Origin: Oligoflexales bacterium
GTDB lineage: Bacteria > Bdellovibrionota_B > Oligoflexia > Oligoflexales > Bog-1112
Assembly: GCA_045105515.1 (NCBI GenBank)
Contig: JBGCDR010000112.1
Coordinates: 1 to 14,424, forward strand
Direction: 5' to 3'
Length of the DNA: 14,424 nt
Shown here: positions 413-13,284 of the stretch, in pieces
Layout: every line of letters begins with the position of its first letter
Numbering within the stretch: the first letter of the stretch is position 1
Made by a program: the position numbers and the translations under genes
The notes under the pieces: model-generated
Told to the model about the DNA's origin: nothing
Seen by the model: the letters and a program-made list of their open reading frames with translations, nothing else
The model's database searches: none

Positions 413-2680
413 GTGAGTCTTATGGTGGAAAGATACAAAAATTTTTTCGATAAATCATTGGAGATGCTTTGCATCGCTGACAAAGAGGGAAAGTTTGTAG
501 AACTAAATCCCAGGTGGAGCGAGGTTCTTGGTTATTCAGCTGATGAGTTACTGTCGCAACCTTATATAAATTTTGTTCATCCTGATGATCAAGAACGTAC
601 TATCACGCAAGCGAAAAAAATCTTACAGGAAAATAAACGAATTATTAGCTTTGAAAACAGGTATAGAAAAAAGGATGGGAGTTATATATGGCTTAGCTGG
701 AATTCTACCCTTTCTTCGGATGGTTATCTTTATGCAGTGGCAAGAGAAATAACTTCAGACAAAGACATGAGAATGATACTTGAAAAACTCCAAGAAGCTG
801 GAAAAATTGGTTTTTGGTCTTTTGCAGAGGGCGATACTTCTCCTACGTGGAGTTCGGGGACTTACAAAATCCATGGTGTTTCCTTGGAAGATCAAGTTCA
901 ATTAAGTGAAGCTATAGATTTTTATGTGGGAGAGTCCCGTGAGCGAATTACTCAGGATTTTGGAGCTTCTCTTGAAGAGGGGAGTAATTTTGACGGAGTC
1001 TATCGATTTAAATCAAAGGACGGAGTGCTAAAATGGGTTCGTAGTATTGGTATTCCCAAATTGGATTCAGCAGGAAAAGTTAAGGAAGTCCAGGGAATAT
1101 TCCAAGATGTCACAAAAGAAAAGCAGTTTGAAGAGAAAATAGAAGCTTATGGAAAAAGACTTGAGTTAGCGCTTGCTACTTCAGAAATCGGTGTTTGGGA
1201 ATACAACATCAGTGATAGTAGTTTAGCCTGGGATGAGCGGATGTTCTCTATCTATGGCACAAAACCAGAAAATTTTAGTGGCACTGTAGAGTCTTGGAAT
1301 CAAAGTTTGCACCCAGATGATTTGGAAAAAGCTCAGCAGGATTTACAGTCAGCTCCTTCGAATAATGGAATATTTAACAGTGAATTTAGGATCTTATTTC
1401 CTAATGGAGAAGTGAGGTTTATCAAGGCCAAAGCCCAGACTTTATATGATAGTAAGGGAGCTCCTAGCAAGATGATTGGGGTGAATTGGGATATAACGGA
1501 CTCAAAAATGAATGCCGAGTTGCTTAGAACCGAAAAAGAAAAAGCTGTTCAAGCTAGTAAAGCAAAATCAGATTTTTTATCACATATGAGTCATGAAATT
1601 AGGACTCCTATGAATGGAATGTTAGGATATTTATCACTGTTATCTGAATCTCAACTTGATCAGGAGCAGGAAGGATTTGTAAAAACTATTTTAGAAAGTG
1701 CATCTTCTTTGCATTCACTGATAAATGATATTCTTGATTATTCTAAAATCGAAGCTGGTAAGATGACCTTGTCGGTTTCACTTGTGGAAATTGGAAGCCT
1801 TATAGAAAAGGTCTGTAGCCTTTTTCGTGCATCAATAGCGGCAAAAGGAGTTGTATTAAAAAGCGAAATTAAAATAATGGAATCAGGTGCTGCACTAATT
1901 GATGAAGTACGGGTCAAGCAAATACTTAGTAATATCCTGGGTAATGCAGCCAAGTTTACCCACAAAGGGGAGATTGTTGTTTCTGCAAGTTATGATCAAA
2001 TTAACAAATCTATGATTTTTAAAGTTCGCGATACAGGCATCGGAATCGATACAAATCAAATCAAAAAAATATTTGATCCATTCCAACAATCTGAGGATTC
2101 AGTGCTGAATACCCTACAAGGAACTGGTCTTGGTTTAGCAATAGTGAACCAACTAATCCAACTAATGGCGGGTAAGATTACATGCGAAAGTATTCCTGGT
2201 CAAGGCTCCGAGTTCACGGTGAGTATTCCGGCGGAATTGTCTTCGTCGAATAGTGAAAGAAGCACTACACAAGCGAAAAAATCGATGGACTTTAGGGCCA
2301 AAGAGAATAAATTGGTCTTAGTTGTTGATGATAATCCTACTAATCGAACTTTAATTAAGCTTAGATTGGAGAAAATGGGTGTTGAAAGTGATTTAGTTGA
2401 GTCAGGTGAAGAAGCAATAGAAAAAGTTAAAAAAGTGAAGTACGATTTAATATTCATGGATATTAATATGCCGGGGATGGATGGCTATACAGCTGCCAAA
2501 GAAATTTATGCACTCTTAAAGGTAGATAGTCCTCCAATATACGCTCTTACAGCAAATGCCTTTGAAGATGATATTAAGAAGACAATGAAAAATGGTTTGG
2601 CGGGTCATTTAAGCAAGCCCATAAGTAAAGATGATTTATATAAAATATTGGAACAAGCCAATATCGGTAAAGCTAGCTGA
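413..2680 (+). CDS. PAS/PAC-domain hybrid sensor histidine kinase / response regulator (cytoplasmic)
   Basis: 755-aa ORF with three PAS/PAC-like repeats (FVHPDD...FENRYRKKDGSYIWL; SKDGVLKWVRSIG...GIFQDVT; LHPDD...PNGEVRFI...GVNWDIT). Kinase motifs: H-box FLSHMSHEIRTPMNG, N-box QILSNILGNAAKFT, G1 DTGIGI, F-box IFDPFQQ, G2 GTGLGL. C-terminal receiver: VVDDN, IFMDINMPGMDG, ALTA, KP. No transmembrane stretch. Start is GTG 413 or ATG 422. Confidence 0.96.
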   Translation: MSLMVERYKNFFDKSLEMLCIADKEGKFVELNPRWSEVLGYSADELLSQPYINFVHPDDQERTITQAKKILQENKRIISFENRYRKKDGSYIWLSWNSTLSSDGYLYAVAREITSDKDMRMILEKLQEAGKIGFWSFAEGDTSPTWSSGTYKIHGVSLEDQVQLSEAIDFYVGESRERITQDFGASLEEGSNFDGVYRFKSKDGVLKWVRSIGIPKLDSAGKVKEVQGIFQDVTKEKQFEEKIEAYGKRLELALATSEIGVWEYNISDSSLAWDERMFSIYGTKPENFSGTVESWNQSLHPDDLEKAQQDLQSAPSNNGIFNSEFRILFPNGEVRFIKAKAQTLYDSKGAPSKMIGVNWDITDSKMNAELLRTEKEKAVQASKAKSDFLSHMSHEIRTPMNGMLGYLSLLSESQLDQEQEGFVKTILESASSLHSLINDILDYSKIEAGKMTLSVSLVEIGSLIEKVCSLFRASIAAKGVVLKSEIKIMESGAALIDEVRVKQILSNILGNAAKFTHKGEIVVSASYDQINKSMIFKVRDTGIGIDTNQIKKIFDPFQQSEDSVLNTLQGTGLGLAIVNQLIQLMAGKITCESIPGQGSEFTVSIPAELSSSNSERSTTQAKKSMDFRAKENKLVLVVDDNPTNRTLIKLRLEKMGVESDLVESGEEAIEKVKKVKYDLIFMDINMPGMDGYTAAKEIYALLKVDSPPIYALTANAFEDDIKKTMKNGLAGHLSKPISKDDLYKILEQANIGKAS

Positions 2681-2864: not shown

Positions 2865-4241
2865 ATGATTCCTCGGAAATGTTATTTTACTGCTTTTGCT
2901 TATCTCCAATCCTACGCTCTTTTGACTTATTCAGGTGGAAGCCTTGCTGAAAAAAATAGAAGAAATTTTGAAATTCCTCTAGCGATTGAGGCTACGGCTT
3001 CAGCAACTCTTGAAGCAAATAAAATACGCAATGAAAGACTCGAGCAAAATAAGGTGGTTTATGATTGGGGATTAGGAGCTAACCCTATGCCAGTTCCTGA
3101 AAAGATAAAGAAAGCTGTGGCTGACAATTGTTGGGAAAAATCCTATGGATCTCCTCGTGGTATTTCTGAGTTAGGTGAGATCATAGCAAGCAGGTATAGT
3201 CTTCCGAACTACAGATTAGCGAAAGAAAATGTGATAGTTGCTCCGGGATTAAAACAGCTTCTAAACGATGTTCAATTGGCTTTCGCTGGTCCTATAGTTC
3301 ATATTACACCTCATTGGGTATCCTATGATGAACAGGTGAAGATACATCATAAGCAATCTTATAAGATTGAAACATCAGATGATACTGCTTACATGTTGAC
3401 TCCTATTCATATCGAAAAATTTATTTCCAACAATCCTTCTATAGCACAGCAAACAAAGTTGGTGATTTTCAATCATCCAACAAACCCTACCGGTGTGGCT
3501 TATTCTAAGGAAGAAATTATTAGTTTAGCTAGAGCTTTTACTGAGCATAATTTTATCGTATTTGCTGACGAAGTCTATCTGGGTAATACATATGATGGGG
3601 AAACAATAAGTATAGCTGAATGGATGCCGGAGCGAACAATCAGAGCAAGTAGTCTTTCTAAGGAGTATGGTCTTGGAGGTTATAGACTTGGCTGGGCTAC
3701 TTTCCCTAATAGTTTGAAACCTCTTAATGATCTTATGTTTGCAATTGGAACAAGTTCGTATTCTTGCGCTTCAAAACCAGCCCAATATGCAGCTATAGCG
3801 GCGCTTTCGGGTGGAGAGGAAATTGATTCTTTTATTCAGAAAGGAAGGTCAATTTTCGAAGCTGCTGCAGCAGTGCTTGCTGCTCGATTCAGAGAATTAG
3901 ATCTATTAACTGTTGCGCCAAATGCTGCCTGGTATTTTCTCTTGGACTTTTCTAAATATCAAAATCAACTAAAAAGAAATGGCATCAACGATTCCATAGA
4001 GCTGTGTGCACGCTTGGCAAAAGAACTGGGGATTATTTTTGTTCCAGGCGAAGCTTTTGGTCTTAAGTCACCTAGCTTTAAAGTGAGGGCCAGTTTTGTA
4101 GACTTTAAACCAGTTGAAGCCCTGGCGTGGTTAAAGAATCGGAATACTACTTCAGACCATAGAGAAGGAAGGGCCCCACCTTGGATGAATAAAATGCTAG
4201 AAAGTACTAAAGAACTCGAACAATGGTTAAACAAGATGTAG
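2865..4241 (+). CDS. PLP-dependent aminotransferase class I/II (aspartate aminotransferase-like)
   Basis: Motifs GLGANPMPVP, NHPTNPTG, FADEVY, SLSKEYGLGGYRLG (PLP lysine) and VPGEAFG...VRASF. About 30 extra N-terminal residues precede the typical SATL motif region. Confidence 0.92.
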   Translation: MIPRKCYFTAFAYLQSYALLTYSGGSLAEKNRRNFEIPLAIEATASATLEANKIRNERLEQNKVVYDWGLGANPMPVPEKIKKAVADNCWEKSYGSPRGISELGEIIASRYSLPNYRLAKENVIVAPGLKQLLNDVQLAFAGPIVHITPHWVSYDEQVKIHHKQSYKIETSDDTAYMLTPIHIEKFISNNPSIAQQTKLVIFNHPTNPTGVAYSKEEIISLARAFTEHNFIVFADEVYLGNTYDGETISIAEWMPERTIRASSLSKEYGLGGYRLGWATFPNSLKPLNDLMFAIGTSSYSCASKPAQYAAIAALSGGEEIDSFIQKGRSIFEAAAAVLAARFRELDLLTVAPNAAWYFLLDFSKYQNQLKRNGINDSIELCARLAKELGIIFVPGEAFGLKSPSFKVRASFVDFKPVEALAWLKNRNTTSDHREGRAPPWMNKMLESTKELEQWLNKM

Positions 4242-5051
4242 CTATCCTTGTTTTTCCTTTAACACTAATGGGCAGTCACTAGGGTCATCACCAAAGCACT
4301 GAAGAAGACTTCCGCTTGATTTTTTAAAATCATCAATATTGTATGGTTTGTATCGAAAATTAGGATAAGATCCAGATTGAGGTTTCAAGTATGAAAGAAG
4401 AACCAATGATTGATCGTATTTAATTGAGAAATAGAGACATCCTAAAGCATTTTTACCATCTTTACTGACATCTACTCCCATAAATTGTAAACTGTCCAAA
4501 GCATCAGGATCCATAATTCCACTTTTCCCACTCCAGTTACCGATGCCATATTTATCCCAGCTACAGCTAGGCTTATCACATTGGTATTGGCGTTCTACAT
4601 CTCGAGCTTGTGGGCAATAAGCTACTTGAGAGGGATTCGACTCACTTTTCTCCAATGCCGAAAATAAGCCTGATTGGAATTGCGGAATATTTAATTCAGA
4701 ATCTGGACATCCTTGAAAGTTAAATCCAATAGAATTTTCATGCATAAGAGGGTGTGCTTGTTTACTAACAGCACAGCTCCAATTACGGTGAATCATTCCT
4801 AGGCCATCATTATGATCTGCGAATGAATAAGTTTCTTTAGCATTTGCTTTTAATTTAAGCCTTACCTCTCGCACTTGTTGGTAACTCCAGCCTCCATGAT
4901 ACACTCTACAAGCTAAGTTAATTTCTGAGGAGGAAGGGTTAACAATGGACCATGTGGTGGGGTAATCGAAGCCACAAGATTGGGCATAGGATGTTATAGA
5001 TGAAAAGAAGCTTGCCTTTCCCAGTAGTGCAATCATTAATAATCGCTTCAT
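4242..5051 (-). CDS. Cys-rich secreted hypothetical protein
   Basis: Long ORF. GGAG RBS (5057-5060, minus strand) sits 5 nt before ATG 5051, favouring this start over GTG 5057. N-terminus MKRLLMIALLGKASFFSSITSYA looks like a Sec signal peptide; the mature part has 10 Cys. Confidence 0.8.
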   Translation of the reverse strand: MKRLLMIALLGKASFFSSITSYAQSCGFDYPTTWSIVNPSSSEINLACRVYHGGWSYQQVREVRLKLKANAKETYSFADHNDGLGMIHRNWSCAVSKQAHPLMHENSIGFNFQGCPDSELNIPQFQSGLFSALEKSESNPSQVAYCPQARDVERQYQCDKPSCSWDKYGIGNWSGKSGIMDPDALDSLQFMGVDVSKDGKNALGCLYFSIKYDQSLVLLSYLKPQSGSYPNFRYKPYNIDDFKKSSGSLLQCFGDDPSDCPLVLKEKQG

Positions 5052-5108
5052 AGTCACTCCAATAATATAAAGTTGTACAATTCTATTTGCTTATAGATTT
5101 ATCGGAGT

Positions 5109-5261: not shown

Positions 5262-6266
5262 TCACTCGATAATATAGTTTAAAAAACCTTTTGAGTGAAT
5301 AAGCTTCAGAAGCTCAGAGGCGCGAGCTATAACCAATTTGGATTTTTGCTGAAAGCCTGAAACTTCATAGCCATGCAAGCCAATTTCCGAAGCAAAATCA
5401 TCTAAGTCATCACAGAACTCTTGGATTGCTGTTCTTAAATATTCTGGTAAAAAATAATTGTAGTTTTCTCTATGTTTCTTGAGGAGAAATCTAAAAATTT
5501 TGTAGTCAATATAGTGAAGCCTTGTGTCTAGCTTGAGGCGCTTCAACTCTTTGATAATTCGTATATCAGAAACAGGGACCTGTGTAAGATCGATCAATTG
5601 ATCAAATGCTATAGTTCCTAATTGAATTTCGCAAGTGATGGGCGAATTAGGGTATTTTAGATGCAAATGAATTCGTGGATATCCAAATTTCATCGGCTCT
5701 AGTGGTCTTTTTGGTTGCTGCATTTTGATGATCTGAAATCCATGCTTTATGGCAACTTGACTAGCTACATGAGCAGCATTACTAACTTCCTGAAAATTTG
5801 TTAAATTAATTCGAGCGCGTACAATATCCGACAGCTGACTTGGCGAAAAGAAATTACGCTGATCAATTTTGCGTACTATTTTTTTGTGGAGTTCATCATA
5901 GTCTATTCCCTTTGTATTTACCTTGAAAGAGTATTCTTCAAGTCTATTATCCAGAGCTAGCTTATCTAGAGTTTCTTCACATATTACAGAGAGCTTGCCT
6001 TTCAACTCACTTGCGGCTTCGAATAACAATTCTTTATGTATTATAGGTATGTTAGAAAGATTTTCACGGTCTGTGTTTAAGATTTGATTGACCAGCTCAT
6101 TTTTTAAAACTGGTGCCAACCAGGGTATAAAAGTTGGTTCAAGAACCGCTGGATCCCGAGCATAATCGAGTTTTTTTAGTTTAGGGCTTGGAATGGTAGG
6201 AGAAAAAGACCCGGATTGGTGTACAAGTCCAAGTGCTAGTAGTACTTTAAATGGCAAAGAAATCAA
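5262..6266 (-). CDS. RelA/SpoT synthetase-domain protein (small alarmone synthetase-like nucleotidyltransferase), possible signal peptide
   Basis: The four SYNTH motifs appear in the right order and with plausible spacing: TK...KKIVRK (cf. RxKxxxSxxxK), LSDIVRARI (cf. DxxxxR), GYPRIH (cf. GYxSxH) and CEIQLGT (cf. EIQIRT). No HD hydrolase, TGS or ACT domain is evident. TTG start with AAGGGGA RBS (6274-6280) 7 nt upstream. Confidence 0.75.
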   Translation of the reverse strand: MISLPFKVLLALGLVHQSGSFSPTIPSPKLKKLDYARDPAVLEPTFIPWLAPVLKNELVNQILNTDRENLSNIPIIHKELLFEAASELKGKLSVICEETLDKLALDNRLEEYSFKVNTKGIDYDELHKKIVRKIDQRNFFSPSQLSDIVRARINLTNFQEVSNAAHVASQVAIKHGFQIIKMQQPKRPLEPMKFGYPRIHLHLKYPNSPITCEIQLGTIAFDQLIDLTQVPVSDIRIIKELKRLKLDTRLHYIDYKIFRFLLKKHRENYNYFLPEYLRTAIQEFCDDLDDFASEIGLHGYEVSGFQQKSKLVIARASELLKLIHSKGFLNYIIE

Positions 6267-6496: not shown

Positions 6497-6952
6497 ATGA
6501 CATTGTGGTTTATTATGAGCCTTATGCAAAAAAAATGTAAAGATAATAGCTTCCAGAAACATTTGGTGCTCTTTTTGGTTTCCTTGATGTTGATAAAGAG
6601 CTTCGCAAGTATCTTGCTTGTCCATCATGAGCATGATTTAGGTGAACCGCACAATAAAGAGGAGCATGCTCACATTATTTTTTCAGGATTCTCATTTTAT
6701 AAAAAATTGATTAATTTGAATTCTATTACCGAAGAATCACATGAACAAAAAAGCAATGGGGAGGATGCTAAAGATCACCAGCACCCTTTTCTCAATTTTA
6801 TATGTCCGCATTGTGCAATCAATATAAGATTAGGCAATGAACTTCCCATTTTAAGTCAATGGGAACAAGATGAACTTATCCATGAATCCCGCATTTCTGA
6901 AGGATTTACTTCCTCTATCCTTAAGCCTCCCATCTATAGGTCCTTTGTTTAA
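6497..6952 (+). CDS. His-rich, CxxC- and C-terminal PP-containing leader protein (DUF2946/CutF/CruR-like architecture)
   Basis: Hydrophobic segment HLVLFLVSLMLIKSFASILLV, His clusters (HHEHD, EEHAH, DHQH), CPHC at 6803-6814, and KPP at 6923-6931, seven residues before the stop. True start may be ATG 6515 or 6524. Confidence 0.65.
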   Translation: MTLWFIMSLMQKKCKDNSFQKHLVLFLVSLMLIKSFASILLVHHEHDLGEPHNKEEHAHIIFSGFSFYKKLINLNSITEESHEQKSNGEDAKDHQHPFLNFICPHCAINIRLGNELPILSQWEQDELIHESRISEGFTSSILKPPIYRSFV

Positions 6953-7118
6953 ACTTAGCAAATCTGTTTCAAAAATTTATTAGCTAAGCAGCAAGTGATT
7001 ACTTTTCATAATGTGTTGCTTTGCTAATTCAAAAAATCTGATCTCTTGTTTTGGACAATAGTCATTTGGGCTTTAAATGCCAAGCACTGTCTGAATTTAG
7101 ATTAAAGGAGCATATACT

Positions 7119-8246
7119 ATGGTTGCACATATTAACTATCAGCAGGTTAAATCCGCTGAAGATTATTCAAAGGCCCTTAAAAATGATGATTCGGCTCCCC
7201 AAGGTAGCCGAATTTCCAATAATTTAGGAGAAGCTCTAGGTCAAGTTCCGATTCTAAAGCTAGGAAGGGTTCACGAACTTTGTCAGCAGCATGATTTATA
7301 CTTTAAATTGGAATCCTGTAATCCTGGTGGAAGCATCAAGGAAAAGAATGCATCTTACCTTGTGGAACAAGCTGAAAAAATGGGTTTGCTTAAAAAAGGC
7401 GGTACTATTATTGAATCAAGCTCTGGAAATTTCGGAATTGGACTTGCGATGGTTGGGGCTGCTAAAGATTATCGTGTGAAGATTGTTGTGGATGAAAAAA
7501 CTTCTCCGACGATGCGCAAAATTCTTTTAGCACTAGGTGCTGAGCTTGTTGATGTTCCTCTTAGTCAAGCCGACGAAAATGGTTCTATGCAAATTGCTCG
7601 AATGAAAGTTGCTGCTTCCCTGACAGAAAGAATTCCCGGAGCATGGTATCCTTGCCAACATAAAAATCCAATGAATCCAGTGGCTCATACACTCTATACA
7701 GCTAGGGAAATTATTGCATCTTTTGGCCGTTGTCCAGATGCTATTGTCATTGGCATTAGTACAGCTGGGCAATTGTCAGGAATCAGTTCGTATTTCAAAA
7801 CCCACTATCCCACTGTAAAGATCATCGTGGTAGATGTGGCAGGCTCATGCATTCTAGGAACGCCTAGGCACGCTTACAAGATGACAGGGCTTGGTCTTTC
7901 TTTTATTCCACCCAACTTTCGCGAAGACTTTTGTGATGTTGGATACTCCGTAGAGGATGACTTAGCATTTTCTCTTTGTCGGCAAATTGCAAAAAAAGAG
8001 GGCCTTTTACTAGGAGGATCTACAGGTGCTATTCTCGCAGGTGGCCTAGCTTATGCGCAGGAGCAAACCAAAAAGAAAACAATTCTAATGATTAATCCAG
8101 ATCGTGGAGATCGATATTTAGAAACTGTTTATGATGACAACTGGATTTCAAATCAGGGTATAAATCTTTTGGAAGGCGAACATTTAAATGCGCGCATAGA
8201 CGATTTGGAGCCAGTTTTATTATTCAAACAAGGAACGAAATCATGA
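7119..8246 (+). CDS. Cysteine-synthase-family PLP enzyme, SbnA-like beta-replacement synthase
   Basis: KLESCNPGGSIKEK (PLP lysine), IIESSSGNFG, GISTAGQ, EGLLLGGSTG and PDRGDRYL. The ESxSGN, xSTxG and DRGDRYL variants resemble SbnA rather than CysK (EPTSGNTG, GVGTGGT). AAGGAG RBS at 7105-7110. Confidence 0.88.
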   Translation: MVAHINYQQVKSAEDYSKALKNDDSAPQGSRISNNLGEALGQVPILKLGRVHELCQQHDLYFKLESCNPGGSIKEKNASYLVEQAEKMGLLKKGGTIIESSSGNFGIGLAMVGAAKDYRVKIVVDEKTSPTMRKILLALGAELVDVPLSQADENGSMQIARMKVAASLTERIPGAWYPCQHKNPMNPVAHTLYTAREIIASFGRCPDAIVIGISTAGQLSGISSYFKTHYPTVKIIVVDVAGSCILGTPRHAYKMTGLGLSFIPPNFREDFCDVGYSVEDDLAFSLCRQIAKKEGLLLGGSTGAILAGGLAYAQEQTKKKTILMINPDRGDRYLETVYDDNWISNQGINLLEGEHLNARIDDLEPVLLFKQGTKS

Positions 8247-9604
8247 GGTTTTCTGTCCAACAGGCCAAGTCCTTGAAAGAACTATGGCGAGAATTTATTC
8301 CTCTTTCATTAAGCGACATAATGATGGCTTTTAGCGACCCTTTGATGACGGCAACTTTGGCGCATTTACCAGGTGCCAGAGCCAATATAGCAAGTCTTGG
8401 TATTGTGAAGTCACTGATTGTATTTTTTGAAAGTCCGATCATTATGATTCTGCATGCCTCAACCGCTCTTTCAGGGCATCGGCAATCTCGCAAGTATTTA
8501 GGGATGTTTACTTTTCTAGCCTGTTTGCTGCTTTCTGGTTTGCTATTAGTTTTAGGTATTCCTTTGGTGTTTAATTGGTTTGGAACCCATTTCCTTGGTA
8601 TCGATGAGCAAATGCTCCAAAGAACAGGAAGCATGCTTGTTGTTATGTTTCTCTGGCCTGCAGTTATTGGTTGGAGGCGTTTTTTTCAAGGGATTTTGAT
8701 TCAAGCTGGCCAAAGTAGAGCTTTGGCAAAAGCAAGCATGATGAGAATAAGTTATGTGGTCCTATCTTTAGCATTAGGATTTACGATGAGTTGGCAGGGG
8801 ACTACGATCATTGGAGTAAGTCTACTGGGTTCAATTTTTGTTGAAGCCTTGGTAGTTACTTTTGCCGCCTATGTAAGCAGAGCGATTGAGACCTATGAAA
8901 TGCCGAAGGAAAAGCAAAAGGTAGCCCCCAAATCTTTTACACAAGTATTAAAGTATTATCTTCCTCTCGCCAACTCCATGCTTGTGGTCTGGGGGGGGCG
9001 CTTTCTCCTAGTTGCTGTTATAGCAAGGTCAATTGACGGCAGTCTGTCTCTAGCAGTATGGCCTGCTAGCTGGGGTGTGGTTTTATTAATAGCTAATGCC
9101 ACTCGGATGGTACAGCAGGTAATCATTAAAAACCGCAGTACTGTTGCAGATGGAATCTTGGCGGGTTTTTCAATCAGTGTAGGAGCCTTGTTTTCCATTG
9201 TTCTATTGCTTATTCCAATAACATCTTTGGGACATAAGGTTTTAGAAGGATTCTTAGGCAATGATAAAGCAATGGTTGCCGGAGTTTCTCCGGTTATCCT
9301 GATCTGCACGATCGTCCCATTTTTAGTAGCAGTTCAAAATGCCCTTCAAGGTTTTCTAATGTCGGAAGGAAAAACCAAATGGATTAATACTTCTACGTGG
9401 CTTGGTACTGGGGTTTTACTTTTTGCAGCAGGTCTGGGTGTTAGTCAAAATTTCAGCGGATCAATAGTTGCTGCATTTGCCATGGTCTTGGCGCTCATAA
9501 CAGAAATAAGTATGCTTTCATATCTATTACTTAGCAAAAATATGCTTATATTTAATGAAATCTTGGTATCTACAAACAAACACCAAATTGCAGAGGGGAA
9601 TTAA
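8243..9604 (+). CDS. MATE/MOP-superfamily multi-pass membrane transporter (putative exporter)
   Basis: 453 aa with roughly 12 hydrophobic segments. It has two internally similar halves (WREFIPLSLS... / LKYYLPLANS...; RRFFQGILIQAGQSR / QNALQGFLMSEGKTK). ATGA overlap with the upstream stop implies translational coupling. Confidence 0.8.
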   Translation: MRFSVQQAKSLKELWREFIPLSLSDIMMAFSDPLMTATLAHLPGARANIASLGIVKSLIVFFESPIIMILHASTALSGHRQSRKYLGMFTFLACLLLSGLLLVLGIPLVFNWFGTHFLGIDEQMLQRTGSMLVVMFLWPAVIGWRRFFQGILIQAGQSRALAKASMMRISYVVLSLALGFTMSWQGTTIIGVSLLGSIFVEALVVTFAAYVSRAIETYEMPKEKQKVAPKSFTQVLKYYLPLANSMLVVWGGRFLLVAVIARSIDGSLSLAVWPASWGVVLLIANATRMVQQVIIKNRSTVADGILAGFSISVGALFSIVLLLIPITSLGHKVLEGFLGNDKAMVAGVSPVILICTIVPFLVAVQNALQGFLMSEGKTKWINTSTWLGTGVLLFAAGLGVSQNFSGSIVAAFAMVLALITEISMLSYLLLSKNMLIFNEILVSTNKHQIAEGN

Positions 9605-9605
9605 T

Positions 9606-10537
9606 ATGAATTTGTCTATTCCTCAATCAGAAATTAATATCTTTAAAAATCACAGATCATCTTATGAATCATCAACGGTAAGAGTACCAGCAACCTGTGG
9701 TGAATTAATGCAGGGGTATTTGGATGGACAAGATTTTTTGATCAATAGTCCCATTTCAAGGTTTGCTCGCTTTAAGGTAGATGTGCTCTCTAGCTCCAAG
9801 GTTGCAGTTAAGGGTAAAGGAAATTTTGGTAAAGTTAACAGGGCTGTAACTAAAACTTTATCTCTTTTGGGTAAGTCTGAAAAAGGGGCAAGTATCGAGG
9901 TCTTGGAATCAATCCCAAGGGGAAAAGGTTTAGCTTCAAGCACAGCAGAAATGACAGCTGCGATCTCAGCAACTTCTTTTGTGGTTTCCGGCACATACTG
10001 GGATGAAGAACGGTTTCCCCGTACTCTCTTGGAGATAGATCACTCAACCGATGCTGTGTACTGCCATGGCATCACAATGTGCGACTACCTTTCAGGAAAA
10101 GTTATTAAACATTTTTCTAAAATACCTTCCCTTGAATTTATCGTTGTGGATGCGGGATGCCAAGTGGAAACAGCAGATTTTGATCGCGAAAAAGCTAAAG
10201 CAAATGCTATAGAGCATCGAGAACGCTTGCAATCAGCGTTAGCTCTAATGATTTATGGATTGGAGCAACAGATTCCAACGCTTATTGCAAAAGCTGCAAC
10301 AGAAAGCGCTCTGTCAATCAAAGTATCCTTGGAAAACAAGGTTTGCAAGAGTTGCTCGAAGGAACACGTGCATGGGGTTCCCTTGGGGTTAACTGTGCTC
10401 ATACTGGTAGCGTTTTAGGTGTATTGTTTGACCCACTAAGCTGTGAAGGTGAAAAGCTCTATGAGCGGGTTCAGAGCCTTGTAGGCAAGGATAAGGTGAT
10501 AGGCAGGTATGAGCTTATCTCGGGTGGAATTTATTAA
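9606..10537 (+). pseudogene. PduX-like GHMP kinase (L-threonine/serine kinase-like), frameshifted at about 10312 (true lesion or sequencing error)
   Basis: The first frame carries PATCGELMQG and IPRGKGLASSTAE (GHMP ATP loop). The adjacent frame continues VNQSILGKQGLQELL...GVNCAHTGSVLGVLF...GGIY to TAA 10537. Adding one base near 10312 joins them into 310 aa. ATG 9606 has a GAGGGG RBS (9593-9598) and lies 1 nt after the transporter stop. Confidence 0.85.
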
Positions 10538-11043
10538 AGCTCTTCACCTTCATAATAATCTACGCTTTCTTGATCTTTGATAATTTTCATAAGCCAAGAA
10601 GAAGTAAAAAATCCTTTTCCAGCGTCTGAACTGCCAAAAATGCCAATTTTTTTGGAATCAGGGTAGCCTACCACATCAGTTGGCAGCATGGACGAAAGGC
10701 AAAGGTAGGTCAGGGAATTTTTTCCTGTATTTTTTAATGAATGGCTATTTTCTGGTCCCGGGGGAAATGAAGCAAAGTCATTTTGTTTGATTGGATACCA
10801 GGTATCATTGATTCTAACTTCGCCTTCTCCACTTAATATAAAAATGGATTCTTCGTTAGCACAATGAAAGTGATGAGGAAAAGATTCTTTTTCTGGCGGT
10901 AGCTCATACCAGGTGCAACCCACTATTTTATTGCCAGCTTCTACACCTATACGTTTGCTGCTAAATGCAAATCGATCTCCCTTTTCTCGTTTATTTTCAG
11001 GAATCTGCTCGAGGTTTCTAATTTGCTTATGTCGTTCGGCCAT
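10534..11043 (-). CDS. Cupin-domain protein
   Basis: Cupin motif 1 ELPPEKESFPHHFHCANEESIFILSGEG, motif 2 FPPGPENSHSLKN, and a DVVGYPDSKK tail. AGGAG RBS upstream of the ATG. Confidence 0.9.
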   Translation of the reverse strand: MAERHKQIRNLEQIPENKREKGDRFAFSSKRIGVEAGNKIVGCTWYELPPEKESFPHHFHCANEESIFILSGEGEVRINDTWYPIKQNDFASFPPGPENSHSLKNTGKNSLTYLCLSSMLPTDVVGYPDSKKIGIFGSSDAGKGFFTSSWLMKIIKDQESVDYYEGEEL

Positions 11044-11197: not shown

Positions 11198-11791
11198 ATG
11201 ATGCCGTTTTCAATTATGTATCCATTAATTCCAGTATTAGCAGTTCTAATGTTTCCAGCTGGAGAATTCCCAGAAACCGGGCTACCTACTATAGACCGAA
11301 ATATTAACAATATTATTGAATATTATAGTGATGAGACAAATTTTGTTGATAAATTTGATAATATTGTAACGGAAGAATTTCTTATTGCCGATCTGTGTGA
11401 TGACCCCCACTATGATGAACCCGAAGTAAGCTTTGATGTTTCTGGCTATGTTTTCCATCAAGAAAATATAAGATTCGAGCAACGGCTCAACCACGCTTCT
11501 TATCGCTTGGCTGGTCGGGCTGGAAGCGTTCTAAGCAACCTTCAACTTGATCCTGAAAAGAAGGAAATTTACATGGATGTGCAAAATCATATCAGCGACC
11601 CTGTAAGAAGGCGAGTTCTTGGCAGTTATAATGAAAAAAATTTGGTTACCTGGCATGAGCAATACCAGCCTCAGTGCACTTACACACGTTTTAAATACAA
11701 GGTCGATCGCATAGTTCATCAGGTTTTGTCGAGAAAGTTTTCAAGCTACTCGAACTTTTGGGAATTTACCTGCGAATTTTTTATGGAGTAG
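11198..11791 (+). CDS. Hypothetical protein, hydrophobic N-terminus (possibly exported)
   Basis: 197-aa ORF with an AGGAG RBS before ATGATG (start 11198 or 11201) and N-terminal PLIPVLAVLMFPA. No family recognised. Confidence 0.65.
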   Translation: MMPFSIMYPLIPVLAVLMFPAGEFPETGLPTIDRNINNIIEYYSDETNFVDKFDNIVTEEFLIADLCDDPHYDEPEVSFDVSGYVFHQENIRFEQRLNHASYRLAGRAGSVLSNLQLDPEKKEIYMDVQNHISDPVRRRVLGSYNEKNLVTWHEQYQPQCTYTRFKYKVDRIVHQVLSRKFSSYSNFWEFTCEFFME

Positions 11792-11794
11792 TTC

Positions 11795-12022
11795 TTAACC
11801 TAAGATAGATGTTGATGGAGATCGTAGTTTGGTAAAATCGCTTTTGACATCACTAATATGCCAACCTGCATCTGCAATTCTAAAGCTAAGTTTGCTTTCT
11901 ATTTGAATCAGAACCTTATCTTTGTTGCAGTGTAAGCATTTTTGTGGTTTTGGGTCAGATTGTTTTAAGTAGTAACCTCTAATATAGTTACAGCTTGAAC
12001 ATTTGAACTCAGCAATCGGCAT
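11795..12022 (-). CDS. FmdB-family zinc-ribbon protein (divergent)
   Basis: MPIAEFKCSSC...CLHC...SFRIADAGWHISD parallels the family pattern MPIYEYxCxxC...CPxC...FxLKGSGWYxTD. Start moved to ATG 12022 (MPI), with AGGA upstream. Confidence 0.78.
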   Translation of the reverse strand: MPIAEFKCSSCNYIRGYYLKQSDPKPQKCLHCNKDKVLIQIESKLSFRIADAGWHISDVKSDFTKLRSPSTSILG

Positions 12023-12171
12023 AATCATCATCCTGAACAAGTGTAGATTAATTTAATTGGTATATAACAAGCTATCGGTCTTTGGGTCTACTCAGATTAA
12101 TTTACTGGTTACCCAAATGTACACCTTGAAACGTAATGCTGTCAAAAGGGCTGTCAAGGGTATTAAGCAAA

Positions 12172-13284
12172 TTACTTGTTAATCTTTTGAAAAAGAAAGA
12201 CTTTTCCTCGTAGAGGAATTCTATTTTCCGAACGGATGGGAGCTTCTTGCTGAGCCTTTATTTCAAATTTGTATTGCTTTGCTAATTCTTTGATGTATTT
12301 GTCTGAATGGCTAAATCTCGCCGTTTTTTGTAGTGAATAGTTGCCATTAGCCTGTGATTCAATAGAGAATAGAAATTTTCCAGAATCTACCAATACTTCA
12401 CTGACCAATGAGATGACCTTACTTAGGTCACCAAAATATATGAGCACATCAGCACCTACAACTAAGTCATATGATTGATTGCATTGAAGTAAGTAGTCAA
12501 TGAGATCAGATTTATGAAGCTTGCGGTATATTTTTTTTTGCTGAGCCTGCATAAGCATTTTTCCAGAAAGATCGACTCCATCCATGTACTTACAAATATT
12601 TTCTAGCTTAAGTCCACATAATCCTGTGCCACAACCAATATCTAAGCATCTAAGATACGTTTTTTTTGAGTAATGTATTTTTAGAATTTCAAAAAATAGT
12701 TGAGGAATTTTATAGGCTAAGTCTTCGAGCAGATTCGTTTCGAAAGTTTCGGCGTAGCCATCATAGAGTTTTTCTATGTATCTTTCCGGTGCCTTTTCAA
12801 TCGACTGATTAGCTTCGAATGCTGCAAGCATATAATGAGCATCAAACTTGTATTGAGAATTCATATTACTAACTACTCGATACCACTTCATGGCATCATT
12901 TATTTCTGATCTCACTCGGTAAATTTCAGCTAAGTGATAAGCTGATAGGTCTAAATCTGGGTTTATTTGGAATGCAGATTTTAGATGGAAGATAGCTTTA
13001 TCAAAATCTTGAAGATCTTTATAGACTAAGCCCAGGTAGTGGTGTGAAATGGAGCTATTTTTGTCGATTTTTAGCCCATGTTGAAGTTTAGTAACAGCCT
13101 TACTGTGATCTTCTAATAAGAAGTAAAGGTACCCAAGTTTATTGAGGACGAAGAGATTATTATTATCTAACGATAAACATGCTTCATAATTTTCAATAGC
13201 CTTATTGACAAGTTTATGTTTGCTAAACGTCTTAGCAAGAAACAGATATGAGGCGATTTTATGTTCTTTCAATTCCATTTTCAA
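12172..13284 (-). CDS. TPR-repeat protein with C-terminal class I SAM-dependent methyltransferase
   Basis: N-terminal TPR-like repeats (NKLGYLY...A, HYLGLVY...FDKAI...A...P). C-terminal motifs LYDGYAETFE...L.Y..P, LDIGCGTGLCG, GVDLSGKML, ADVLIYFGDL and RFSHS. Confidence 0.92.
   Translation of the reverse strand: MKMELKEHKIASYLFLAKTFSKHKLVNKAIENYEACLSLDNNNLFVLNKLGYLYFLLEDHSKAVTKLQHGLKIDKNSSISHHYLGLVYKDLQDFDKAIFHLKSAFQINPDLDLSAYHLAEIYRVRSEINDAMKWYRVVSNMNSQYKFDAHYMLAAFEANQSIEKAPERYIEKLYDGYAETFETNLLEDLAYKIPQLFFEILKIHYSKKTYLRCLDIGCGTGLCGLKLENICKYMDGVDLSGKMLMQAQQKKIYRKLHKSDLIDYLLQCNQSYDLVVGADVLIYFGDLSKVISLVSEVLVDSGKFLFSIESQANGNYSLQKTARFSHSDKYIKELAKQYKFEIKAQQEAPIRSENRIPLRGKVFLFQKINK

Follow-up and report, generated by a model that had tools for sequence, protein, structure and literature searches.

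A conserved synthase–transporter gene pair in Oligoflexia, cyanobacteria and other bacteria: a candidate two-gene route to an exported metal ligand

The stretch of DNA analysed here, which we call the window, is the 14,424-nucleotide contig JBGCDR010000112.1 of an Oligoflexales bacterium (assembly GCA_045105515.1), and our subject is a gene cassette on its forward strand between positions 6497 and 10537. The cassette comprises a His-rich small open reading frame (ORF), an SbnA-like pyridoxal phosphate (PLP) enzyme, referred to below as the synthase, a transporter, and a frameshifted GHMP kinase of the PduX/DabA type. When homologous loci are compared across genomes and metagenomes, the conserved unit is the synthase together with the transporter, and the kinase and small ORF are lineage-specific accessories. 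We tentatively favour, at somewhat below an even chance, the interpretation that the pair is a two-gene module: the enzyme would add an amine to an O-phospho amino acid in a single step, the product would leave the cell uncleaved and act as a metal ligand, and the kinase and a leader would be add-ons of particular lineages. A first-pass annotation of the same DNA had proposed a small chelator made by a three-gene pathway of kinase, synthase and exporter. That hypothesis is partly supported by the sequence comparisons and survives in modified form, with a two-gene core, an optional kinase that is probably dead here, and more contextual support than before.

In the window, the small ORF (6497-6952, +; 151 amino acids, ORF call) is followed by the synthase gene (7119-8246, +; 375 amino acids, ORF call), the transporter gene (8243-9604, +; 453 amino acids, 12 transmembrane segments) and the kinase gene (9606-10537, +). 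The close packing of these genes in the first-pass annotation checks out in every coordinate. The transporter start overlaps the synthase stop in an ATGA at 8243-8246, the transporter stop TAA (9602-9604) is followed by a lone T at 9605 and then by the kinase ATG at 9606, and the kinase stop (10535-10537) lies within a 4-nt overlap with the cupin gene that converges on it (10534-11043, -). The arrangement exceeds chance, because the identical gene order is found in nine genomes of four genera.

Among 131 genomes of the class, an orthologue of the transporter (E at most 1e-100) was found in 10, and in 9 of these the kinase lies directly downstream, so the three genes are syntenic elsewhere, as a three-gene pathway would imply. 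The complete four-gene set occurs in 9 of the 131 genomes, spread over four genera and two families; G109 has the transporter orthologue without the kinase, and the window's congener G001 has no cassette. Within a set of 41 related genomes, synthases at 67-68% identity occur only in G007 and G009, which belong to other genera of the same family and keep the order small ORF, synthase, transporter, kinase, and all other matches are paralogues at 24-39%. In named genomes, the transporter directly follows the synthase in 20 of 20 loci, and beyond the class the kinase is present only in those of Fluviispira and Silvanigrella. No kinase homologue was detected genome-wide, at E up to 0.001, in three cyanobacterial genomes and a Bdellovibrionales metagenome-assembled genome (MAG). 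A metagenome set of 60 family loci, representing 49 clusters at 97% nucleotide identity, gave the same picture: the transporter is directly downstream in 40 of the 42 loci having at least 1.4 kb of downstream DNA, and the kinase appears in 2 of 39 loci with long flanks. Hosts of the pair include cyanobacteria, Oligoflexia, Vibrio and others, myxobacteria among them. Thirteen plasmid records carry a synthase match 56-62% identical, and the pair was seen in the two that were inspected, from Nostoc PCC 7120 and Vibrio europaeus. Since the pair is kept in genomes and metagenomes while most carriers lack the kinase, the core consists of two genes, and the three-gene unit of the first-pass annotation has to be given up. 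Two metagenome synthases, in loci L094 and L097 (56% and 49% identical), are exceptions to the pair rule, having no transporter within 4-9 kb downstream; in L094 a Sel1-repeat protein is encoded upstream of the synthase.

The synthase has a PALP fold of the CysK/SbnA/CBS type (Pfam PALP, E 6.7e-62). Against NCBIfam it scores 282.0 bits for the SbnA family, 247.7 for CBS, 227.6 for cysK (TIGR01139, cut-off 350.95) and 166.3 for cysM (TIGR01138, cut-off 394.2), all under the curated cut-offs. Its position was examined in a maximum-likelihood tree of 27 proteins, midpoint-rooted, in which the deeper branching order is not settled. The tree contained 12 window-type synthases, CysK and CysM of E. 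coli, eight paralogues of CBS type taken from related genomes, a pair of proteins annotated as SbnA, of which one is encoded beside sbnB, and three CysK-like proteins (two kinase-linked) encoded on plasmids of Bacillus and Sinorhizobium. The window-type synthases form a clade of their own (support 100/100), CysK and CysM group with the CBS-like paralogues in another clade that excludes them (98/94), and the kinase-linked DabB-like reference pair also falls outside the window-type clade. The view that the enzyme is not an ordinary CysK or CysM is thus borne out.

The active site points the same way. Across 120 homologues, little or no variation is seen in the PLP lysine Lys74, the SSSGN loop (S100-N104, in the segment E99-SSSGN-F105), Arg161 and the triad Cys179-Gln180-His181, with Arg161 and His181 found in 120 of 120. 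In the alignment, window-type synthases and the SbnA and DabB-like references have in common the SSSGN substrate loop, where CysK, CysM and CBS have TSGNT, together with an Arg-bearing inserted loop and a C-terminal (D/E/N)W extension, neither of which is present in CysK, CysM or CBS. Lys74, the SSSGN loop and Arg161 all align with their counterparts in both annotated SbnA references, and by position we take Arg161 to correspond to R132, the phosphate-binding arginine of Staphylococcus aureus SbnA. The position of His181 is occupied by tyrosine in the SbnA and DabB-like references, presumably the counterpart of Y152, the nucleophile-site (L-Glu) tyrosine of S. aureus SbnA. On these grounds we read the synthase as an enzyme that would use an O-phospho amino acid and a nucleophile other than the glutamate of SbnA. 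By the same sequence criteria it is a distinct subfamily, for which the label 'SbnA-like', already used in the first-pass annotation, expresses resemblance (the top profile score and the motifs) and not membership.

These features also bear on a simpler possibility, that the enzyme is an O-phosphoserine or O-acetylserine sulfhydrylase and that exported cysteine, S-sulfocysteine or another thiol buffers thiophilic metals or oxidants in the periplasm. The closest solved structures by sequence are indeed cysteine synthases (E 7.6e-57), public annotation calls the relatives 'cysteine synthase family protein', and thiol export would suit a copper or nickel context. However, each of the genomes examined encodes, besides the synthase, a paralogue of the CysK/CBS type that falls in a different clade, and the SSSGN sequence in place of TSGNT, the Arg loop of the SbnA/DabB type and cysK and cysM scores far below the cut-offs make a sulfhydrylase quite unlikely. 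Within the window-type subfamily, no alignment column was found that splits kinase-linked from kinase-less synthases. This argues that all of them use one substrate, which kinase-less hosts would obtain from ordinary metabolism, and O-phosphoserine would be the obvious candidate.

The partner of the synthase proved harder to place. The window transporter has no Pfam match of its own, and MatE (PF01554) does not match it at E up to 10. When nine homologues were scanned, ANKH (PF07260) matched three (best E 1.1e-9) and MatE one (E 0.011), which leaves ANKH as the only Pfam family matching significantly in the transporter family, with the window protein itself below significance. A profile built from the nine transporters found no match among all Protein Data Bank sequences at E up to 10. 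In the ESM Atlas, the nearest clusters, with structural TM-scores of 0.89-0.91, carry ANKH in 27-35% of their members, and structural neighbours of the MOP type (MATE, MurJ and polysaccharide flippases) were found at TM-scores of 0.63-0.91. The transporter is best described as a probable ANKH-like member of the MOP superfamily (MATE/MurJ/Wzx fold) and is not a Pfam MATE protein, so the earlier label 'MATE-type' stands at the level of fold and superfamily only. Human ANKH, the progressive ankylosis protein, is described as an exporter of citrate and ATP, which are small polyanions (PMC7371198). The likeness to ANKH consists of the Pfam matches in three of nine homologues; a difference is that for no ANKH-like protein of bacteria did we find a known substrate. 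At G000:C3:38326-39558 lies a paralogue only distantly related to the transporter (~25% identity, E 1e-24 to 1e-27), with counterparts in G001, G002, G026 and others; it occurs in many genomes of the class that have no cassette, so ANKH-like MOP transporters are more widely present in the group. The members of the MOP superfamily characterised so far are exporters or flippases.

The kinase gene is interrupted in the window. Its intact G007 orthologue has 306 amino acids, and homology to it runs in frame 0 to ~10311 and then in the -1 frame from ~10313. The N-terminal part (9606-10311, +) contains PATCGELMQG and the motif PRGKGLASSTAE; the well-conserved C-terminal part (10313-10537, +) contains GVNCAHTGSVLG and ends in ELISGGIY. 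At the frameshift site (10308-10315, +) the window has one base fewer than the G007 gene, giving ATESA and VNQ in two frames against ATESARINQ. The first-pass annotation had already spoken of a kinase in need of repair, and the same frameshift is present when three sequencing runs are each assembled on their own: between 9500 and 10600 the resulting contigs are identical to the window, free of substitutions and indels, at a word depth of 11-37. A search of sequencing runs listed these three DNA runs as the only ones with the stretch, and no RNA run. All three come from one study, perhaps the source of the MAG itself, so they show that the frameshift is no one-off assembly error and do not show it in independent populations. 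From its sequence the kinase is probably dead here, and the earlier suggestion that it supplies the phospho-amino acid fails for this copy.

As to family, the kinase matches Pfam GHMP_kinases_N, and in tblastn searches it is 27% identical to annotated Salmonella PduX (E 1e-12, query coverage 91%) and 30% identical to an L-threonine kinase of Klebsiella. It shares the PduX motifs CGELxQG near the N-terminus and AH(S/T)G near the C-terminus. Here too the comparison suggests that 'PduX-like' should be understood as resemblance, not membership. Plasmid-borne relatives of the kinase are found in three contexts: beside CobD, with a CysK-like enzyme and a lyase in a DabABC-like trio that sits on a Sinorhizobium meliloti plasmid, and with a CysK-like enzyme, an aminotransferase and a DMT transporter. 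One Bacillus tropicus plasmid locus (CP041074.1, 146390-151771) encodes a PduX-like kinase, an alanyl-tRNA-editing-domain protein, a CysK-like enzyme, a PLP aminotransferase and a DMT transporter, and represents another uncharacterised cassette of like logic. In Fluviispira, a further homologue of the kinase, less closely related (27-30% identity) and split into two open frames, lies at G044:C23:162418-163157, about 7 kb from a SerC-like gene at G044:C23:154434-155510.

SerC-like genes were found in three of the five kinase-bearing genomes, namely G000 (two copies), Fluviispira and Silvanigrella, and for this reason we rejected the idea that the kinase makes up for a missing phosphoserine pathway. 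In G007 and G009, which are 94% and 92% complete, the search for SerC came up empty. Its absence from those two assemblies, and the small size of Oligoflexia genomes, would fit a transporter that works in the opposite direction, importing serine, threonine or a phospho-amino acid for salvage in hosts with reduced biosynthesis. We regard import as very improbable, because the pair occurs, unaccompanied by the kinase, in free-living cyanobacteria whose biosynthesis is complete, SerC is present in the other three genomes, and both the MOP superfamily and ANKH speak for export.

A kinase paired with SbnA-like chemistry is known already. According to PMC10906522, DabA and DabB have been shown experimentally to act as a kinase and an SbnA-like enzyme using O-phospho-Thr or O-phospho-Ser with L-Asp, DabA/DabB/DabC make (2S,3R)-diaminobutyrate in monobactam clusters, and SbnA/DabB-type products are antibiotic building blocks. 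The statement in the first-pass annotation that the three-gene logic matches no pathway it could name has to be changed on this point, since the DabA/DabB precedent exists; a stand-alone synthase–exporter pair we did not find described. The cassette resembles DabABC in combining a PduX-like GHMP kinase with an SbnA-like PLP enzyme, an architecture that the S. meliloti plasmid trio shares; it differs in having a dedicated exporter and neither a DabC-like lyase nor a non-ribosomal peptide synthetase (NRPS), and in that most carriers are kinase-less. Compared with SbnA/SbnB of staphyloferrin B synthesis, the synthase has the same top-scoring family, SSSGN loop, aligned arginine and C-terminal extension, but it scores below the family cut-off, carries His for Tyr, has no SbnB partner and belongs to a separate clade. 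Fungal aspergillomarasmine A synthase and the AesA-D pathway of Amycolatopsis for [S,S]-ethylenediaminedisuccinate (EDDS) are cysteine-synthase-fold systems that build exported aminopolycarboxylate chelators. EDDS synthesis needs SbnB- and decarboxylase-like partners, which are absent here.

Could the pair instead be a fragment of one of these pathways to 2,3-diaminopropionate or 2,3-diaminobutyrate, with the lyase or dehydrogenase encoded elsewhere and the diamino acid feeding an NRPS or siderophore? The kinase and synthase do occur together as in DabA/DabB, the DabABC-like trio exists on the S. meliloti plasmid, and Fluviispira has SbnB-family and IucA/IucC genes elsewhere in its genome. Among five carrier genomes, however, it is alone in this: the SbnB family (TIGR03944) exceeded its cut-off only in Fluviispira, on another contig, and not in G000, G007, G009 or Sphaerospermopsis, and an IucA/IucC gene was likewise above cut-off in that genome only. 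No argininosuccinate-lyase-like gene was found in the nine kinase-bearing loci, and no SbnB, lyase, NRPS or NRPS-independent siderophore (NIS) synthetase gene adjoins the pair in about 100 loci examined, in agreement with the first-pass annotation, which had noted the lack of all four in the operon. The gene for the dedicated exporter, moreover, overlaps the synthase gene start to stop, which speaks for release of the synthase product itself from the cell. We consider a pathway fragment improbable.

The case for a metal ligand comes mainly from other phyla. An RppA/RppB-like two-component system adjoins the pair in 16 of 17 cyanobacterial loci, the exception being a contig of 1.9 kb; the adjacency is found in Pseudanabaena and Scytonematopsis besides the Nostocales, and the RppA and RppB proteins exceed the NCBIfam equivalog cut-offs in both loci tested. 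RppA is, we assume, the same gene as NrsR, and its NCBIfam name matches the nickel sensor NrsRS. On plasmid beta of Nostoc PCC 7120, rppB and rppA are followed by the divergent synthase and transporter genes, and these by genes for a universal stress protein, TVP38, an ICMT-like protein, DUF2933, a heavy-metal P-type ATPase, YHS and DUF305. In Anabaena, rppBA corresponds to all7583/all7584, homologues of CopS/CopR and direct targets of FurA and FurB, both of which are reported to bind the all7584 promoter region (PMC12282138). The promoter fragment printed in the supplement of that paper matches, by our reading of the sequence, the intergenic region common to all7584 and the synthase gene. The DUF305 gene all7594, which is CopM-like, is described as copper-induced in PMC4335983, and NrsR/NrsS (sll0797/8) as the nickel sensor of Synechocystis in PMC4284471.

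Flanks of 4 kb or more are available for 39 of the metagenome loci; of these, a two-component system is present in 19, a CopM-like gene in 8 and a P-type ATPase in 5. Further neighbours of the pair are a multicopper oxidase and an extracytoplasmic function (ECF) sigma factor in L028 and L106, a multicopper oxidase and an RND pump in L056, and a DUF326 gene in L078. The metal association thus recurs across lineages without being universal, and part of it is shared descent within the Nostocales. The metal link of the first-pass annotation has gained the RppA/RppB sensors, the CopM-like gene, the P-type ATPases and the multicopper oxidases beside the pair in other phyla; chelation itself is putative. 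Searches of the literature for the synthase–transporter family, its ANKH-like partner, the metal-sensor linkage and the leader ORF found nothing, subscription journals and supplements lying largely outside their reach; searches by the Nostoc locus tags alr758x/alr759x found no mention, and the PMC12282138 supplement contains neither alr7585-7587 nor all7588. Apparently undescribed, therefore, are the stand-alone pair with its ANKH-like transporter, its wide range, its metal-sensor linkage and the leader ORF.

The NrsRS/CopRS-type sensors adjoin the pair in cyanobacteria and not in the window or any Oligoflexia locus. The small His/Cys-rich ORF of the Oligoflexia sits upstream, where some cyanobacterial loci (Nostoc PCC 7120 and Pseudanabaena) have the two-component system. 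The N-terminus of the window protein is basic, and residues 24-42 are hydrophobic. It contains 12 His and 3 Cys, with one CxxC (CPHC, residue 103), which bears out its first-pass description as rich in His and CxxC, and it carries the C-terminal motif ILKPPIYRSFV. It has no match in Pfam, NCBIfam or PADLOC. An ORF of 115-156 amino acids precedes the synthase in all nine kinase-bearing genomes; counterparts in G007, G009, Fluviispira, Silvanigrella and other genomes of the latter's genus have 130-156. Sequence conservation is low (21-25% identity), and common to these ORFs are the basic N-terminus, the hydrophobic segment, a Cys-containing motif and an end of the form [LF]x[RKD]PP followed by 1-6 residues, as in ILKPPIYRSFV, KLDPPRHA, FRPPCA, ILRPPIL, LLRPPIA, IFRPPIS and FLRPPITT; for G131 the 3' end alone was read, from an RNA segment. 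Three copies from the window's own family contain 12-15 His apiece, as against 3 in every copy counted from Fluviispira and Silvanigrella, although the G134 copy has an HHHFHF run. The frame is maintained, since two Silvanigrella-type copies differ by 15 synonymous-only codons against 18 residue changes, with no indel.

RNA folding suggests a function for the 3' end of this ORF. The stretch 6926-6955 (+) comprises the Pro-Pro codons (6926-6931) and a U/C-rich segment (~6941-6955) spanning the last codons and the stop, and the U/C-rich segment is predicted to pair with the ribosome-binding site (RBS) of the synthase (7097-7121, +), in which the Shine-Dalgarno sequence AAAGGAG occupies 7105-7111 and the ATG begins at 7119. 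The expected number of pairs in the window is 13.3, against 4.2 +/- 3.7 when this 3' segment of the ORF is shuffled, and 2 of 200 shuffles reach it. The corresponding values are 11.6 pairs in G009 (6/200 shuffles), 12.3 in Fluviispira (6/200) and 14.6 in Silvanigrella (1/200), so pairing exceeds that of shuffles in four of five loci. Nowhere in the window did Rfam give a match at E up to 1, and thus no known riboswitch or leader is present. Leader ORFs that gate a downstream gene by ribosome occupancy include SecM-SecA, MifM-YidC2 and arrest peptides of the RAPP type. The small ORF resembles them in its N-terminal export or anchor segment, its variable body and its conserved C-terminal Pro motif a few codons before the stop; it differs in that [RKD]PP is no described arrest motif and the downstream genes are not secretion factors, and arrest is putative. 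The synthase RBS may become accessible when a ribosome occupies the end of the small ORF, where it might pause at Pro-Pro; we give this model about one chance in three, and plain translational coupling would explain the pairing equally well. That the exported His/Cys-rich part senses metal is speculation.

From the observed gene order, family placement, active-site motifs, frameshift and neighbourhoods we infer the following scheme for substrate, nucleophile, transport direction, metal binding and leader. The PLP enzyme would take an O-phosphorylated amino acid, most likely O-phospho-L-serine, form the aminoacrylate and add to it an amine other than L-glutamate, giving a diamino or polycarboxylate amino acid of the N-(2-amino-2-carboxyethyl) type. 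The ANKH-like transporter, translationally coupled to the synthase, would export this product uncleaved. The gene context in other phyla suggests that the product would serve in metal homeostasis or under metal stress, as a small ligand that binds metal outside the cell or in the periplasm. Two add-ons would join the pair in Oligoflexia and Silvanigrella: a PduX/DabA-type kinase making the phospho-amino acid from the free one, dispensable and inactivated here, and the small exported His/Cys-rich ORF, where ribosomes at the 3' end, past Pro-Pro, would unmask the synthase RBS. A bolder claim, which we consider doubtful, is that of a widespread single-enzyme, two-gene metallophore pathway (in cyanobacteria including Nostoc PCC 7120, Oligoflexia, Vibrio and myxobacteria) complete with ANKH-type export and metal or leader control. 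The ligand might then be an aminopolycarboxylate like aspergillomarasmine or EDDS or, with a very small amine, an amino acid of the 2,3-diaminopropionate or β-N-methylamino-L-alanine (BMAA) type, and control would fall to a Ni/Cu-sensing two-component system in cyanobacteria and, through Pro-Pro pausing, to the secreted His/Cys-rich leader ORF in Oligoflexia. PMC9414260 describes the cyanobacterial origin of BMAA-type amino acids as unsolved and their binding of Zn, Cu and Ni.

Several observations weigh against this scheme, in which the metal chelator is plausible and unproven. On the side of the chemistry, TIGR03945, the equivalog model of the SbnA family, gives the synthase its top NCBIfam score, yet that score (282.0 bits) lies below the cut-off of 349.95, as does that of the Sphaerospermopsis orthologue (293.7 bits), and the nucleophile cannot be inferred, because His replaces the Tyr of SbnA and DabB. 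The outward direction of transport is likewise putative. The kinase is not needed merely to obtain phosphoserine, because G000, Fluviispira and Silvanigrella have SerC, and a three-gene logic does not run in the window, because the kinase is broken there. The leader model is challenged by G007, in which pairing with the RBS is not predicted (0.6 expected pairs against 4.1 in shuffles); four GCAUGC-type segments in that locus offer a different scheme of alternative pairing. Moreover, when RNAalifold was applied to seven sequences from the Silvanigrella-Fluviispira genus, the helix was recovered with a double change in only 1 of 11 pairs, and the two most divergent rows align poorly.

The metal context has weak points as well. 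Domain and family scans of the window proteins revealed no recognisable metal gene, and as to the metal sensed, the NCBIfam name points to nickel (NrsRS), while the Anabaena paper treats the same genes as CopRS homologues (PMC12282138). The RppA/RppB adjacency may partly reflect shared descent, many Nostocales loci being 80-90% alike, or clustering on plasmid islands. None of the searched metal markers is present in 18 of the 39 long-flank metagenome loci, and a Pfam scan of 13 loci without a two-component system found mostly unrelated neighbours (restriction systems, chaperones, a tRNA synthetase). Such metal-free contexts, to which the Vibrio plasmid and the window itself belong, would be expected if the product were a non-proteinogenic amino acid with no metal role (an antimetabolite, allelochemical, signal or compatible solute) and the two-component system were a mere regulator or chance neighbour. 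The incorporation of SbnA/DabB-type products into antibiotics, as described in PMC10906522, and the nature of the hosts, which are Oligoflexia of predatory or host-associated type and bloom-forming cyanobacteria, also fit such a product. We nevertheless hold it to be unlikely, as RppA/RppB stands beside the pair in 16 of 17 cyanobacterial loci, Pseudanabaena and Scytonematopsis included, copper-type neighbours repeat in unrelated lineages, and the upstream ORF of the Oligoflexia is rich in His and Cys.

The remaining genes of the window are not part of the cassette. Among the neighbours of the Oligoflexia cassettes, genes for endonuclease III, an RqcH-like protein, a class-V aminotransferase and an ICMT-like protein were considered as parts and rejected, since they vary between genomes; the aminotransferase gene of the window is likewise not syntenic with the cassette elsewhere. 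An ICMT-family gene does lie near the pair in unrelated hosts, at 3556-4008 of locus L012 (G009) and 11679-12332 of locus L037 (Nostoc PCC 7120), and in 2 of the 39 long-flank metagenome loci. Heavy-metal islands often contain genes for isoprenylcysteine carboxyl methyltransferase (ICMT). At 413-2680 (+), 3.8 kb 5' of the cassette, lies a gene for a hybrid sensor histidine kinase that combines three PAS domains with HisKA, HATPase and receiver domains; it shows no synteny with the cassette in other genomes. Two ORFs of 334 and 271 amino acids (5262-6266, - and 4242-5057, -) gave weak matches only, to a RelA/SpoT-like nucleotidyltransferase region (E 4.7e-5, below the cut-off) and to an EirA-like protein associated with type IV secretion (E 0.004). 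Neither has relatives in the homologous loci, and for both an effector-like role in a host-associated bacterium is conceivable. Downstream, an ORF of 197 amino acids without a family (11198-11791, +) and a gene for an FmdB-type zinc-ribbon protein (11795-12040, -) follow the cupin gene, and none of the three is kept beside the cassette elsewhere. A PADLOC scan of the unassigned neighbours gave no match.

If the two-gene module does make and release a metal ligand, one SbnA-like enzyme and one exporter would suffice for the task, which would be the simplest bacterial metallophore route known, and a function would be found for bacterial relatives of the human citrate and ATP exporter ANKH. The pair is present in the genetically tractable Nostoc PCC 7120 beside a metal-responsive regulator that has already been studied, so the hypothesis is directly testable, and the synthase family offers a concrete candidate for the enzymes behind the small diamino acids of cyanobacteria, whose origin is unresolved. 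With its leader ORF, the Oligoflexia version contributes what may be a new control element. Even if the metal-ligand reading is wrong, what remains is a well-delimited and widespread group of cysteine-synthase-fold enzymes, so far uncharacterised and tied to a fixed transporter.

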